A stretch of DNA of 64,000 nucleotides from an uncultured Planctomycetaceae bacterium. Its GTDB lineage: Bacteria; Planctomycetota; Planctomycetia; Isosphaerales; Isosphaeraceae. The translations under genes were made by a program, and so were the position numbers. Location of the stretch: the NCBI GenBank assembly GCA_963833985.1, contig CAWIAD010000002.1, positions 6,208,001 to 6,272,000 of the forward strand, in the 5' to 3' direction. A model generated the notes under the pieces. It worked only from the letters and a program-made list of their open reading frames with translations, searched no databases and was not told the DNA's origin. This document shows positions 11,079-16,720 of this stretch, piece by piece; position 1 is the stretch's first letter, and every line of letters starts with the position of its first letter.

Positions 11079-11146
11079 GCCGTGGGCAGTAGGCCGTGGG
11101 CAGTTTGTAGGCGGCAGTAGGCCGTGGGCAGTAGGCAGTGGGCAGT
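11079..11146 (+). repeat. Irregular tandem GGCAGT(A/G) heptamer-like repeats
   Basis: gccgtgggcagtaggccgtgggcagt...ggcagtaggccgtgggcagtaggcagtgggcagt read directly. Confidence 0.7.
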
Positions 11147-11252
11147 CCTATACATCTCCTCAATGAACTCGATGCTTTCTGTGCTTCATAGTCTGTCTCG
11201 CCCTCCGATACGGAATTGCGCAGTCGGCAGTGGGTGGTCGTTGTCGGTTGCT

Positions 11253-11408
11253 TCATCTGTCCCGCAGTTCCTGGATTTGGCTCCGTTCTGGCGCCCCTTT
11301 TCGCTCCGCAACGGCTGTATCCTCTTTGCCAATATCAACTTGCGTCGCCAGATCATTGGCTTCGTTCAAGATACTCTGAGAAACGCGCCGAGCACCACCC
11401 GTAGGGTG
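11253..11408 (-). pseudogene. Detached 3' end (51 codons) of the gene at 12869-14071, cut off by the IS4
   Basis: Removing the IS and one target copy gives an in-frame continuation HPTGGARRVSQSILNEANDLATQVDIGKEDTAVAERKGAPERSQIQELRDR*. Confidence 0.75.
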
Positions 11409-11427
11409 GGTCAGCGCAGCGCAACCC
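11401..11427 (+). repeat. GTAG-type REP palindrome GTAGGGTGGGTCAGCGCAGCGCAACCC(ACC), split by the IS4; second part at 12874-12896
   Basis: GTAG tetranucleotide followed by an imperfect hairpin GGTGGGT...ACCCACC, restored when the IS is removed. Confidence 0.75.
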
Positions 11428-12873
11428 CATAGCGTCCAACTTAAGGAATTTGGCCTAGGAAAAAAGAAAGGAAGTCCTTAATCCAGTTCGCGTTGTATCG
11501 AGCAAGCGCGTCCTGGAAGAAGGAGCTTCCGTTGGGGATCATAAACAAGGTGGCCGTGTTGTTGCAATCGAGCTTGGGTTCGAAACTCGACGAGATCGGT
11601 CGTGCGACGGGCGTGATCCGGCGGCAACGAAAATTCTCGGGCGCGTCGCTGCTCAAGACCATGGTTCTGACTGTGATGAAGACGCCTCGCCCCCATACCA
11701 ACGACTTCGTCGCGACGGCGGCACTGCTGGGTGTGAACGTGACTGCCGAGGCGATCGAAAAGCGGTTCTCGGAGAAGCTCGTCGCGCACTTCGCGCGGGT
11801 TTGGAACACGTGTTGGAGTCCGTCGTGGAGGCGTCGGCGGCCGGCGTGGCGCTGCTGGACAAGTTCACCGCCGTCGTGATCGCCGACAGCACCACGGTGA
11901 CCTTGCCCGACGAATTCGAGGCGGAATTTCCCGGCTGCGGTGGCAAAACGGGCAGTGGTAAGGCAGCGGTGAAAATTCAGGTGGCGTGGGAACTGCGCCG
12001 CGGTCAGTTGGAGAAGTTGGAGGTCCATCCCGGTCGTCACAGCGACGCCACGAGCGTGGACGTGGACGCACCAGTGGCCTCCGGATCGCTGACGCTCCGC
12101 GACCTGGGATACTTTTGCCTGGAGCGGTTCCGATCCATCGGCGCAAGGAGCTTATTGGATTTCGCGTTGGCAACACGGCACGGCCGTTTTCGACGCGGAG
12201 GGGCGGCGATGGGAGATGCTGGCGTTTCTCCGACGGCAACCCGCCGGCATGCCGGTCGACGTGTCGATCGCGGTGGGCGCGGCGGAGCGTCTGGGATGTC
12301 GGTTGATCGCCTTGCGAGTGCCTCCGGAGGTGGCGAACCGACGTCGGCAAGCGGCCTACGAAAAGGCTCAAAAACACGGCCGCGTGCCCACGCAAGAACA
12401 TCTGGACTTGTGCGACTGGACGATTTTCCTGACCAACTGCCTGGCCGCACTTCTGACGTGGAAAGAGGTCGTGGTCCTGTATCGGACGCGCTGGCAAATC
12501 GAACTGCTGTTCAAACTTTGGAAATCTCACAACCACCTCGCCGAGTCGCGTGCACACTGGACCAGCATGGAACGCCTGGCGTTGTTCTGGGCGAAACTGA
12601 TCGGCGTGGTGCTTCAGCATTGGCTGCTCCTGACCGCGAACGCGGCCGATCCCCGCCGCAGCCACTGGAAAGCGGCCCGCGTCATCCGGAACTGGATGGA
12701 ATCCCTGACCCGAGCGTTGGATAACATCGACGAGCTCATACGCACCTTGAGAGACATGGCCACGACGATCGCCAGCGTCGCTCAGAAGAAACGTCGGAAG
12801 AAACGGCCCAGCCTATTCCAACTCCTTTTGGATCCAGAACTTCTGGAATGGAATCCTTAAGTTGGACGCTATG
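11428..12873 (+). mobile_element. IS4-family insertion sequence (~1.45 kb)
   Basis: Perfect terminal IRs CATAGCGTCCAACTTAAGGA / TCCTTAAGTTGGACGCTATG; flanking direct repeat GGGTCAGCGCAGCGCAACCC at 11408-11427 and 12874-12893. Confidence 0.92.
11532..12860 (+). CDS. IS4-family DDE transposase, two apparent frameshifts (~11792, ~12142)
   Basis: Three partial frames give IADST, RDLGYF and the YRTRWQIELLFKLWKS (YREK) motif; TTG start after AAGGAG; stop lies inside the right IR. Confidence 0.85.
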
Positions 12874-14071
12874 GGGTCAGCGCAGCGCAACCCACCGTCT
12901 TGCAGACCTTTACGTGCGGCGAGATGCCCCCGCTCGACGACATTCCGGGACCATCCCCGTCGTTCCGGCCGTCGCGCGATTCATCGTGTGGTTGACGTGC
13001 GACTGGCTCGGGCGCGGGGCCGATCTGTGGCTCATGGACAACCGGCATAGGGGGACGGTCGGCCTCGTTGTTGTTGTCGGCGCCGAGCTCGGCTTTTTGC
13101 AGGTTCGACAGCGTGGTCAGCGTACGCAGTAGCTCGCGGGTCAGTGCACCCTGGTGCCGGCGCAGGACCGCAAGGGCCTTGCTGGCGGCGAAGACCGCGC
13201 GGTCGGGCTCGGCGTCGGCTTCCATCTGCTCCAGGTCCTCGTGCTCGCCGAGCCTTGCTTCCAGCCGGTGGATCGCCTCGTCCACGATCGAGCTGAGGAC
13301 CTCCCAGCCCTCTTTCGGGCTGGCCGGCGGGCGAGACAGGCGCCGCCACGGCATCGCGCCGCTGAAATAAGGGCCGGAGCTGGCCTTCATGTTCCGGAAC
13401 AGCTCCCAGAGCTCGCGGCCCTGACCCGGTTCGATCGCGTCGACGGCCTGGAACACGCGGTTGGCGGCCGGGTCGATCATGCCTTCCAGGAAGCTCTTGC
13501 CCATGAGCCGCAGGAACCGGTAGTGGTCGGTCTCGCTCCAGGCGGCCCGCACGTCGATGAGGTTGCGGAACTCGGACCACCGCGCCAGCAGCCAGCGGCA
13601 GCCCTCGGGGATCTGCTCGAGCCGGGCGAGGAAGACGGCGGGCATGTCGTCGTAGTACTCGGCCTTGCCGAACCGCTCACGCGGGTCGAGGGTGTCCAGC
13701 AGCTTGCGGCCCAGGATGTGGGCCTGCTTCAGCCGCGTGGCCTCGTCGCGGTCGCGCTGGCGGTGCACGCGAGCCGCGAGGTAAGCCGTCTCGGCCCGCT
13801 CGGCGCGGTCGATCTGCCAGTCGATGCGCGCCGCATGGCCGACCAGGGTGCGCTCGACGTCGTTGCGCGGCACGAGTTCGAACGTCCACTGCAAGATCCG
13901 TTCGGCGAGCTCCTTCGGATCTTCCTGTGGCAGGACGGGGATGGCGATGCGGGCGTTGGCGCCATGCCTCAGCGCGTTGAGCCGGGCGCGGGCCTTGCCC
14001 TGGTCGCTCTTCGGCCCCGTGCTTTTTGCGGCGTTGCGGCGATTGGCCGCGATCTGGGCTGTGGTGGCCAC
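12869..14071 (-). CDS. Hypothetical protein of the ANRRNA..STGP..GK..NA..HG family, C-terminus truncated by the IS4
   Basis: Characteristic N-terminus MATTAQIAANRRNAAKSTGPKSDQGKARARLNALRHG; the current stop is supplied by the IS4 IR. Confidence 0.8.
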   Translation of the reverse strand: MATTAQIAANRRNAAKSTGPKSDQGKARARLNALRHGANARIAIPVLPQEDPKELAERILQWTFELVPRNDVERTLVGHAARIDWQIDRAERAETAYLAARVHRQRDRDEATRLKQAHILGRKLLDTLDPRERFGKAEYYDDMPAVFLARLEQIPEGCRWLLARWSEFRNLIDVRAAWSETDHYRFLRLMGKSFLEGMIDPAANRVFQAVDAIEPGQGRELWELFRNMKASSGPYFSGAMPWRRLSRPPASPKEGWEVLSSIVDEAIHRLEARLGEHEDLEQMEADAEPDRAVFAASKALAVLRRHQGALTRELLRTLTTLSNLQKAELGADNNNEADRPPMPVVHEPQIGPAPEPVARQPHDESRDGRNDGDGPGMSSSGGISPHVKVCKTVGCAALTP

Positions 14072-14299: not shown

Positions 14300-14376
14300 C
14301 GGCAGGCGATGCTTGCGTGCCGGGGCGTCTGCGTCCGCATCTGCGTCGCCGCAGGGCACGCAATCCTTGCCTGCCG
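14300..14376. repeat. Imperfect 22-bp inverted repeat (hairpin) downstream of the Y1 transposase
   Basis: CGGCAGGCGATGCTTGCGTGCC (14300-14321) pairs with GGCACGCAATCCTTGCCTGCCG (14355-14376), 19 of 22 positions. Confidence 0.65.
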
Positions 14377-14445
14377 GGGCGCGCACCATGACTTCTCCGC
14401 CTGGAGCCCGGGCGCATGGCCAGGTGCGCCAGCGCCATGGACTCT

Positions 14446-14666
14446 GCGGCACATGGCCACGTGCGTGAGCACGTGGTTTTCACGGGCGCAGCCTCCAACC
14501 TCGGGCGTGAGCCCGACCAGCACTGCGCCGCATCACAGGCATCCCCACGGCGATGCTCCACCCGACCCCGCGTCCGCGGCGCATGGCCACGTGCGTGAGC
14601 ACGTGGTTTTCACGGGCGCAGCCTCCAACCTCGGGCGTGAGCCCGACCAGCCCCGCGCCGCATCAC
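14446..14666. repeat. Two ~90-bp direct repeats with a 130-bp period
   Basis: 14452-14521 is identical to 14582-14651 (70 bp) and similarity extends on both sides; a decayed partial copy lies near 14411. Confidence 0.9.
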
Positions 14667-14671
14667 GCTCA

Positions 14672-15724
14672 TCACCTCACCTCGCACCCGCCCAGGTTCG
14701 CCAGATGATGCCGCCCCAGCCGCCCCGCAATCTCCCGCAGCCGTTCCCGGCTTGCCGCGAAGAACCGCCCCAGCAGCCGGCCCCCGGCCAGCTTCAGCAG
14801 CCGCGCTTGCCAGCTCTCGGCATTGCTCCCCAGCCGTTCCAGGATCCCCGCCAGTTCCGCCGAGATCGCCGCCTTCCCCTCGCGATACAGCCGCCCGGTG
14901 TACTCTACCAGCAGCAGATAGCTGCCCAGCGAGAACCCCTCGACCATCCCTTCGCGACCGCGACCGGAGTCCGAGTCCGAGTCAAGCCCCCGTCGGTCCT
15001 CGATCGGGCACAGCCACAGCCCCTCCTCCAGCCCCTCCGCCGCCTGCGACCCCGCCACGCTGCCGGCCTCGGCGGCCTTCAGGTCCTCGGCTCGCCCCTG
15101 CTCCTGGACGTGCTCGACCCGCTGCTTGATCGACGTGTGGGCACTCGCCTCGGGCACCTCGGCGATGCCCGCGGCCACCGGGTTCAGATCGATGTAAGTG
15201 CAAGTGGCCAGCAACGATTCCTCATCGAGGATCGCCACGCTCTGGAACCGCCCCTCGAAGAACGCCCCGCGGGTGTTCTCCTCGCGGTTGGCCATCCGCG
15301 ACAGCGGCTCCTTGAGGCACTTCATGAACCAGCTCAGGCTTTGCAGCCGCTGGCGTGCCATCACCACCCACTTCACGTCTTTCAGCCGTTCCTTGACCCA
15401 CGCCTCCGAGATCGCAACCGCCCGCCGCGTCTTGTCGCGCGGTGGAAACAGCCTCCCCCAGCGCCGCACGACCTCTTCATCCGCCCACCCCGCAGCCACA
15501 TCCGGGTCGAGCCGCACCAGCAGATGCAGATGGTTATCGAGGATGGCGAACCCTCCCACGGCCACCGAGAAGATCTCCGCAAGTTCCCGCAACCGCCGTT
15601 CGATCCATTCTTTACGGTCGAGATGCCCCTCGCCCAGTAGGAACGCCCGCCGCACACAGCGGCTAATGCAGTGATACCAGCGGGTGACCGACGGATCCAC
15701 CAGATGCGCACGGGCAATCGTCAT
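14672..15724 (-). CDS. Y1/HUH-superfamily transposase (RAYT-related, long ~350 aa type)
   Basis: YHCISRCVRRAFL, HUH motif in LDNHLHLLV, FFEGRF, catalytic-Tyr region YIDLNPVAAG; GGAGG RBS before ATG 15724; frame intact. Confidence 0.88.
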   Translation of the reverse strand: MTIARAHLVDPSVTRWYHCISRCVRRAFLLGEGHLDRKEWIERRLRELAEIFSVAVGGFAILDNHLHLLVRLDPDVAAGWADEEVVRRWGRLFPPRDKTRRAVAISEAWVKERLKDVKWVVMARQRLQSLSWFMKCLKEPLSRMANREENTRGAFFEGRFQSVAILDEESLLATCTYIDLNPVAAGIAEVPEASAHTSIKQRVEHVQEQGRAEDLKAAEAGSVAGSQAAEGLEEGLWLCPIEDRRGLDSDSDSGRGREGMVEGFSLGSYLLLVEYTGRLYREGKAAISAELAGILERLGSNAESWQARLLKLAGGRLLGRFFAASRERLREIAGRLGRHHLANLGGCEVR

Positions 15725-15785
15725 GCACGGACCTCCCAGCAAGATCCGCACAAGCTACCCAATTCCACCGCCCGAGTCAAGAATA

Positions 15786-16007
15786 CATTGCATGTCCTTG
15801 CTGCTTCTTCATTGCATGTCCTTGCTGCTTCTTGCTGCTTCCTTTGCTGCTTCCCTTTGTCCTTGCTGCTTCTTGCTGCTTCTGCTGCTTCCTTGCATGT
15901 CCTTGCTGCTTCGCTGCTTCGTGTCCTTGCTGCTTCGTGTCCTTGCTGCTTCCTTGCTGCTTCTGTGTCCTTGCTGCTTCTTCCTTGCTGCTTCTGCTTG
16001 CTGCTTC
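15786..16007 (+). repeat. Array of 15 variably 5'-truncated copies of CATTGCATGTCCTTGCTGCTTC
   Basis: Parsed by hand: every unit ends in GCTGCTTC, units are 8-22 nt, separated by 0-4 extra nt. Confidence 0.92.
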
Positions 16008-16010
16008 TAC

Positions 16011-16274
16011 CATCCTGATTCTCGAGCCCGAGGTGTTCGGCACGACGACCGGTTCATTGACGGCCGACATCCAGGGCAAGTCTGCGTTCGCGAGCAACGT
16101 CGCCTTCGGCGGCATCCCGGCTTCGGCTCGCCCCCCGGCGCCGGCGGCACCGGCTACGGCGGCGGCCTGTTCGTCGGCGGCGGGACCGTGACTGTCTCGA
16201 AGAAGACGAAGTTCGCCGCGAACTTCGCCATGACCGAAGGCAACGACACCTACGGGCCGTATACCACGACCTGA
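16011..16274 (+). pseudogene. 3' remnant of a Gly-rich surface/beta-helix-type protein gene
   Basis: Reads ILILEPEVFGTTTGSLTADIQGKSAFASNVAFGG / PGFGSPPGAGGTGYGGGLFVGGGTVTVSKKTKFAANFAMTEGNDTYGPYTTT* with one frame slip, high GC3, no start codon; begins immediately after the array. Confidence 0.65.
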
Positions 16275-16720
16275 AGCCGTCGCGCGGACCGCCGCCTCTC
16301 CCGATCGTTCGCCCCGCGAGACCCGGCCGACGGCCGCGCCTCCAGGGCCGCGATCATCCTCTCGCACGCATCGGCTTCGGCCCGTCCTCCGGGAAGTGCA
16401 TCACAACGCGGGAGGGCGAGCCGTCCGGCCCTGGCCGTCTGATTCCCTGAGAAGCTGAAATTGATGATGACGCTCAACTTCCAGCGATTCGAAGATGTTT
16501 CACTCGTGGCCGCGTAAAGTATTCTTGGGCGACATCGGCGTATGCCCCCTCGAAACGTTGCTCGAGAGATTTCATTGAGCTTGTCAGACGAGGGCAAGCA
16601 GGCTCACATGGCCCTGATTGACGGACGAGGCAGGGTGCTGATACGTTCGGAACGTCTGCCCGTTCAGTTTGACAGGGGCCAGCCTGCGTGGGTGGAGAAG
16701 ACCCGAGAGTGAGCCATCCC

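Follow-up and report, generated by a model that had tools for sequence, protein, structure and literature searches.

How can a row of repeats share one fixed end while the other end is ragged? The question is raised by a locus in a 64,000-nt window (the whole stretch of DNA analysed here) from an uncultured Planctomycetaceae bacterium, in which such an array adjoins a Y1/HUH transposase gene. An earlier note, made from the letters alone, had read the array as truncated copies of one 22-nt sequence, written by site-specific cleavage and strand transfer. Based on the comparative sequence analysis presented here, the array at 15786-16007 is best described as a stack of end copies, shortened on their inward side and derived from the left end of a ~1.35-kb Y1/HUH element. 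The stacks are real and family-wide and are apparently undescribed, and a plausible mechanism can be proposed for them.

The array and its surroundings

Re-parsing recovered the 15 same-ended units reported in the earlier note, all perfect copies and all with the end GCTGCTTC. Non-overlapping unit lengths were 22, 22, 10, 10, 15, 10, 9, 20, 8, 15, 15, 11, 15, 13 and 11 nt, with linkers of 0-4 nt and end-to-end periods of 8-24 nt; the first 14 lengths agreed with the earlier ones and the last was 11 instead of 10 nt, a difference in linker assignment. The two full-length units do lie nearest the gene, with the correction that a third long unit (20 nt) is found mid-array. Between the array and the ATG of the intact gene (350 aa) there are 62 nt, close to the ~60 nt given before. 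The 8-mer of the array has 704 sites in the 10.16-Mb, 65% G+C genome, and this array is the only place with at least three of them within 60 nt. When the whole genome was divided into 44,159 segments of 230 nt, only seven contained any 8-mer at least 10 times, and two of these, besides the present array, adjoin genes of another Y1 family.

The idea of a special 22-nt unit was not upheld: the inner 12 bases are the conserved element end, and the outer 10 bases differ from copy to copy even where the encoded proteins are 99% identical. The arrays therefore do not track the protein. We infer that the conserved terminal motif (Table 1) is the recognition site of the transposase, and the true boundary of the element, together with a minus-strand nick, is predicted at 15807/15808.

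Table 1. Features of the transposase locus in the window
Feature	Position	Strand	Evidence
22-bp hairpin resembling a REP-like doublet	14300..14376		folding z -3.85
Two 104-nt blocks, CACGTG-palindrome repeat	14443..14676		96/104 identical, 130 nt apart
Intact Y1/HUH transposase gene, 350 aa, TnpA-Y1 subclass-2.3-like	14672..15724	-	profile, motif spacing, fold
Possible weak promoter, TTGACT-17 nt-TAGCTT	15752..15780	-	sequence; under promoter-scan threshold
Conserved terminal motif TGCATGTCC, outward reading	15789..15797	+	motif upstream of ATG at homologous loci, inverted copy downstream
Copy-specific 10-nt spacer TTGCTGCTTC	15798..15807	+	repeat-end peak +9 to +12; sibling identity at background by +10/+11
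14 more end copies, 8-22 nt, linkers 0-4 nt	15808..16007	+	unit parse
Frameshifted C-terminal remnant of a glycine-rich host gene, abutting the array	16008..16274	+	paralog matches

The array stops at a decapitated host gene, as had been noted; for the last 28-40 aa of this remnant, matches of 41-54% were obtained with three paralogs. Across the element, no ORF similar to the missing N-terminal half could be recognised, no intact ortholog was present in 13 same-genus genomes, and no empty site was found, the junction of the remnant being unmatched in these 13 genomes and in the genome itself. On the other side of the gene, the duplicated block mentioned in the earlier note is indeed a duplication, of 104 nt and not ~90 bp, and the 22-bp hairpin reported there is real as well. 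The palindrome blocks occur downstream of most element copies and dispersed in the genome. The hairpin includes TTGCGTGCCC (minus strand, 14363-14354), which may be a degenerate right end; its distance from the ATG is 1370 nt and it has no array. The window copy thus has a clear left end and a degenerate candidate only as its right end. Hairpin and duplicated block are dispersed genome repeats and may be mere bystanders of the mechanism. Promoter scanning of the region gave nothing above threshold.

Several other repeats were observed in the window. A 400-aa ORF without a Pfam or NCBIfam match (12869-14071, minus strand), possibly a mobile or passenger gene, lies beside CACGTG repeats in a unit of which the genome has ten copies (91-98% DNA identity); its Atlas matches were hypothetical planctomycete clusters only. 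A frameshifted IS4-family element (11399-12896) with several 98-99.9% copies lies inside a GTAG-type REP-like palindrome. The short irregular GGCAGT/GGCCGTG repeat at 11080-11147 is downstream of a probable radical-SAM gene, which we take to be queE-like, and similar ACTGCC repeats occur at C2:4013738 and C2:5714558. A dispersed repeat of ~74 nt (16449-16522) has many occurrences in same-genus genomes.

The transposase

The protein scored 24.2 bits against Pfam Y1_Tnp (cut-off 23) and 40 bits against NCBIfam REP_Tyr_transpos (RAYT), below the cut-off of 80. HLH (NHLH) is located at 65 and YIDLNP at 177, with an HuH-to-Y distance of 112, followed by HTS at 196-198; H65, H67 and Y177 were invariant among 28 aligned sequences. 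The predicted structure, which includes a helical insertion at residues 74-127, was weak (pLDDT 59.5; residues 217-287 and 311-350 under 50) and reliable in the core alone. Its best fold matches were IS200/IS605 TnpA (IS608, ISDra2) and TnpA-REP at E about 0.002, with no match at E 0.001, and a PDB profile search with the protein returned nothing. An intrinsic polymerase domain was considered and is not supported, as the best rows of the fold search were Y1 transposases and the PDB profile search was empty, the model being weak in its C-terminal part. Matches of the C-terminal half were limited to hypothetical or transposase-named clusters, and no HTH family matched the protein.

The nearest relatives are from Isosphaeraceae and other planctomycetes; 13 gammaproteobacterial records are 33-36% identical over 83-99% of the query. 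Near-full copies of the element number 13 in the genome, at 88-100% identity. According to the survey that defined it, subclass 2.3 has a median length of 325 aa, an HuH-to-Y distance of 110, NHYH and YVDLNP as consensus motifs, TS after the Y, a long insertion and multiple copies, and the text of that survey gives neither an identifiable flanking REP-like structure nor a mechanism (Quentin et al. 2018, PMC6006769). By motifs, distance, length and copy number, the protein is thus classified here as TnpA-Y1 subclass-2.3-like.

Element ends and boundary

On the upstream side of nearly every genomic copy, similarity stops just past TGC(A/C)TGTCC (outward, non-coding strand), and the tails are then copy-specific. 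The terminal motif can be given overall as TGC(A/C/G)TGTCC, inverted at the two ends, plus a spacer of ~10 nt. It was located 66-172 nt upstream of the ATG in 70 of the 79 homologous GTDB loci with an N-terminus (80 fetched). Downstream, an outward-pointing motif was present in 27 of the 66 loci with enough sequence and the motif was in the wrong orientation in 4; right ends were 1094-1681 nt from the ATG, mostly 1.2-1.35 kb. Because the downstream motif is inverted and mini-elements carry back-to-back ends, the family is interpreted as a ~1.35-kb element with inverted ends. No hairpin was detected in the left end region (z 0.46) and no palindrome in the upstream flank. The mini-elements have 45-52 nt between two outward ends (C2:510432-510484, 3032841-3032893, 3035175-3035227 and 5023786-5023831); at the first of them, codon ~18 of a Y1 gene is joined to codon ~187, which points to a target deletion.

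The position of the outer end was estimated from 104 exact copies that start inside the element, without assuming a fixed end. Sixty-six of them end at +9 to +12. The starts of the copies are scattered between -3 and -72, with accumulations at -5 (26 copies) and -3 (19 copies). Close siblings have the inner bases of the spacer in common: the identity of their ends is 0.92 at +1 and has dropped to 0.47 at +10 and 0.37 at +11 (38 non-independent pairs). The spacer is carried intact between loci in some genomes (AAGGGTGCT in five loci, TAGCAGCT in four) and drifts to T/C-rich sequence in the window genome. Its interpretation as target-site sequence was mostly rejected: a copy of the flank was found elsewhere for 12 of 41 ends, and nine of the 12 had no tail at the junction, two matched the tail partly (C2:3037728, C1:3168830) and one was too diverged. 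Taken together, the fixed ends at +9 to +12, the sibling divergence at +10/+11 and the flanks without a tail argue that +10 is the real boundary and that the spacer is a fast-changing part of the element. The fixed end is accordingly regarded as positional, mostly +9 to +12 from the motif, and not as the sequence GCTGCTTC itself. The sequence-specific cut after GCTGCTTC that had been suggested is not supported, the spacer being different in each copy.

Recurrence of the stacks

The claim that the array is bound to the HUH gene, is built of element-end copies with one end fixed and the other ragged, and recurs at homologs was borne out. Extra units were parsed at 25 of 70 gene-anchored GTDB left ends, compared with 5 of 300 unrelated motif sites; the other 45 of the 70 homologous left ends had none. 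In the window genome, 9 of 16 gene-anchored left ends carried extra units; a count of 27/37 for all ends in this genome is inflated, as the non-gene ends were chosen partly for being repetitive. Right ends carried them in 12 of 27 cases, and stacks of end copies were also found on the ~52-nt mini-elements with two ends back to back. Equivalent stacks follow GGGTGTC or TGCCTGTC in relatives from Pseudoalteromonas, Photobacterium and Catenovulum and include duplications of about 130-200 nt (lengths judged by eye). Stacks are thereby present in two bacterial phyla, often at both element ends. Non-repetitive spacers such as CCGCGTACCT and AAGGGTGCTT also form arrays. No relatives were found among viral contigs with two queries, and two of 5,426 E. 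coli genomes matched, over 49-51 nt of flank only.

Over the family, unit length ranges from 7 to ~550 nt and the extra bases number 0-6. The longest case is a partial copy of ~550 nt with the same spacer, directly upstream of a full copy (C2:3954755-3955312), a layout that is repeated in Aeromonas (L129/L124). Some distal units grade into host-like sequence (C2:2547629, C2:802369). Units farther from the element were not significantly shorter (rho -0.14, p 0.22, 83 units).

Arrays were also seen in other Y1 families of the same genome. A second family of ~236 aa with the motif AACTGACAC has arrays at both ends (C2:2426850-2428500, C2:3098350-3100150), one left end having 21 extra units with block-level duplications. 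A third, with open frames of 478-498 aa and the motif GTGGGTGGC, is represented by C2:2519151 and C2:551466; these siblings have in common an internalised older array and 21-22 nt past the outer motif and then differ. With stacks behind a separate motif in each of these two further families, stack formation is apparently common to a larger branch of Y1 elements.

Junctions and same-site comparisons

Among zero-linker junctions, 19 of 22 were without microhomology (mean 0.23 nt, compared with 0.33 nt expected). Linkers were present in 33 of 55 units, and 61 of 71 linker bases in the window genome were purines on the inward strand, a bias that by eye was weaker in the gammaproteobacterial spacers. 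Untemplated addition tends to purine. Ligation is favoured over slippage because of the lack of microhomology together with the linkers, their purine content and the piling up of starts at -5 and -3. The earlier doubt about simple slippage was thus justified, homology-driven slippage not being supported by the junctions. Two other processes, replication slippage of the ordinary kind in a T/C-rich tract or selection for a field of transposase-binding repeats, could draw on the pyrimidine-rich (outward) spacers and on the higher-order block duplications. However, one end is fixed and the other ragged, arrays arise from non-repetitive spacers too, many units have no motif and most copies have no array, and together with the missing microhomology this makes either process very improbable.

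The metagenome scan gave 38 loci with seven element-like same-site pairs, four identical and three different; two of nine flank-sharing pairs (L154/L189, L159/L178) had been dropped as chance motif matches without a gene. L153 and L173 have the distal part in common; the difference between them, of 16 nt, adjoins the motif and comes with a new spacer. L158 and L163 are identical inward (420/420) and differ by one unit and ~34 nt of flank, a difference that parallels the truncated host gene beside the window array. L174 and L181 differ by one 13-nt unit, possibly through assembly collapse. As three of the seven pairs differ, element ends appear to be reworked after insertion. An assembly or consensus artefact as the source of the arrays is hardly credible, given that dozens of independent assemblies, complete isolate replicons among them, have the same pattern in sequences that differ, and that four same-site pairs from separate contigs agree exactly.

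Two strains of Pseudoalteromonas shioyasakiensis (L138, L139) have nested ends at the same icd-ilvI site, right after the terminator, with an end duplication of ~108 nt in one strain that is absent from the other; the two filled strains also differ in inner end sequence and are not a clean pair. Compared with the empty site of a strain only ~82% identical, a divergence that weakens the comparison, the insertion looks near-clean and no target-site duplication is evident.

Possible origin of the stacks

Read on the coding (inward) strand, the units have a fixed start, ~10 nt outside the motif, and a variable stop; the fixed point is thus on the side that HUH chemistry would activate. Cleavage by HUH enzymes yields a 5'-phosphotyrosine and a 3'-OH, the latter being able to prime synthesis or resolve the link (PMC8266576). 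Strand transfer, on which the earlier note had drawn, does not by itself make new DNA, and therefore a host polymerase is needed. We consider that the chances are about even that the stacks are made by nicking ~10 nt outside the motif, abortive displacement synthesis by the host and resealing by the HUH enzyme. The transposase would bind the motif, nick the inward strand 9-11 nt 5' of GGACATGCA and, by standard HUH chemistry, stay linked to the 5' end of the element. The host-side 3'-OH would prime displacement synthesis into the element by a host polymerase. This synthesis would mostly abort after 8-25 nt, in many cases right behind the motif, where the bound enzyme would stand in its way, and would occasionally run for hundreds of bases. 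Carrying 0-6 bases added by slippage or without a template, the resulting 3'-OH would then attack the phosphotyrosine, and the strand would be resealed with one end copy gained (flank-partial end-full end); repetition would give an array. Joining to a trimmed or foreign 3'-OH could lead to flank deletions, nested ends and new insertions, and imprecise cutting could renew the spacer. Under these assumptions, the array is likely to record repeated futile starts at the element end.

The geometry is what such a process needs, as after an inward-strand nick at +10 the enzyme would be attached to the element and the primer would belong to the host. The clustering of copy ends at +9 to +12 with spread starts, the loss of sibling identity at +10/+11 and the recurrence of stacks at left and right ends, on mini-elements and in gammaproteobacterial relatives all agree with it. 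So do joining without pairing, the long partial copies in this genome and in Aeromonas, and the same-site differences of L153/L173 and L158/L163. On the other hand, the 15 perfect units could equally stem from a single burst or from gradual growth, there is no significant shortening of units with distance, and distal units grading into host-like sequence are also expected from repair synthesis. Moreover, the 21-22 nt shared past the motif by siblings of another Y1 family mean that the cut is not always at +10, four of seven same-site pairs are identical and L174/L181 could be a collapse, no extra unit was parsed at 45 of 70 left ends, the purine bias weakens in gammaproteobacteria, and a hairpin-free end does not readily suit recognition by a single-strand enzyme.

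Some of these points would suit a stutter of repair synthesis at insertion, in which the transposase sets the end by a cut at ~+10 and host end-joining or a low-fidelity polymerase extends the target 3' end over the tip, dissociates and begins again at the tip, with many rounds in a single event. This is rather unlikely in our view, although the perfect units, the blending of distal units with host sequence, the target deletions beside ends and two Ku proteins encoded in the genome speak for it. It does not readily account for the lack of microhomology excess, for units of 80-550 nt or for same-site pairs that differ, and no Ku was found above the cut-off in the four gammaproteobacterial records searched, three of which are partial replicons.

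The explanation closest to the idea of the earlier note is a rolling-circle stutter in one episode: nicking, short extension and re-cleavage at the regenerated site would yield activated oligomers that are chained onto the 5' end of the element before final joining, with the newest unit distal. Its geometry is that of nicking with abortive synthesis and resealing; the pT181-family Rep is described as re-cutting after an overshoot of 10-12 nt (PMC4797284), and two siblings of another Y1 family share proximal units and differ distally. We nevertheless judge it clearly improbable, as the shared part of L153/L173 is distal and the extra part proximal, and units down to 8 nt do not regenerate the motif. 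Repeated resealing, repair stutter and single-episode chaining all place the transposase cut at about +10.

If repeated nicking, abortive synthesis and resealing is the correct explanation, it would represent an HUH route with hairpin-free inverted repeats and cutting at a distance from the motif. It would also account for the nesting of ends, for termini that creep outward and for the truncation of neighbouring genes, and would be a natural insertion-type molecular recorder. A wider and doubtful possibility, tentatively put forward, is that subclass 2.3 and related Y1 elements constitute an undescribed class of HUH transposons, in which two inverted hairpin-free ends act as positional nicking origins, a protein-capped copy is ligated to any 3'-OH, failed starts write end copies and the arrays are an ordered, heritable log of activity. 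Subclass 2.3 proteins are widespread and multi-copy, and their ends, substrate and mechanism are absent from the text of the defining survey (PMC6006769). The arrays give the ends, the strand and a predicted nick position to within a base or two, so that the enzyme becomes directly testable.

Comparison with known systems

No published description of such stacks or of subclass-2.3 ends was found in the literature searched, which covered main texts, largely from outside subscription journals, and the term 'short irregular repeats/STIR' is absent from the main texts of PMC6006769 and PMC3733652. The ends for subclass 2.3 (as inverted terminal repeats), the end-copy stacks and the same-site variation are apparently new. 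The present element has in common with subclass 2.3 a long Y1 protein, Y---NP, a distance of about 110, TS after the tyrosine, many copies per genome and 33-36% identity to Alteromonadales proteins. It differs from the subclass as described in the text of PMC6006769 in that inverted motifs, a 10-nt spacer and end-copy stacks bound the gene, and in its planctomycete host.

TIRtrons, with the transposase TIRYT, consist of a Y1 gene flanked by terminal inverted repeats (TIRs) and have gene-less TIR dimers and clusters; the protein has ~240 aa and a C-terminal HTH, and the consensus is GGGGWSAS (Di Nocera et al. 2013, PMC3733652). The element is like them in its Y1 gene with terminal inverted repeats and its gene-less paired ends, for the family at 27 of 66 loci and for the window copy with a degenerate candidate only. 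Its inward strand reads AAGGACAT/AAGGACAG, and the motif GGACA(G/T) partly resembles that consensus. However, its protein has 350 aa and no HTH family match, and truncated same-ended stacks are not described in the text of PMC3733652. TIRYT has been equated with subclass 2.1, and none of 26 TIRYTs was assigned to subclass 2.3 (PMC6006769).

With IS200/IS605 TnpA and TnpA-REP the protein shares the Y1 core fold, and the 5'-phosphotyrosine and 3'-OH chemistry known for these enzymes is presumed for it by analogy. These enzymes recognise terminal hairpins and cut fixed short sequences (C|T in TnpA-REP; PMC8266576), whereas the present family has no left-end hairpin, 350 instead of ~140 aa, Y---NP instead of Y---Q and a positional boundary. 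Unlike a REPtron (RAYT groups 2/3), it falls short of the profile cut-off and has an upstream flank without a palindrome, not GTAG REPs on both sides. Rolling-circle initiators such as pT181 Rep (PMC4797284), which is not an HUH enzyme, offer an analogy in nick-primed displacement synthesis with resealing by the same enzyme, and Replitron-1 has variable flanking bases at one end (PMC10288648). As described in the sources consulted, rolling-circle initiators, IS91 and Replitrons have one origin or direct repeats, whereas here two inverted symmetric ends are present and abortive copies are left in the chromosome. By the features tested, the element is therefore placed with subclass 2.3 and not with TIRYT, IS200/IS605 or the classical REPtron; it resembles a TIRtron and would work like an abortive rolling-circle origin.
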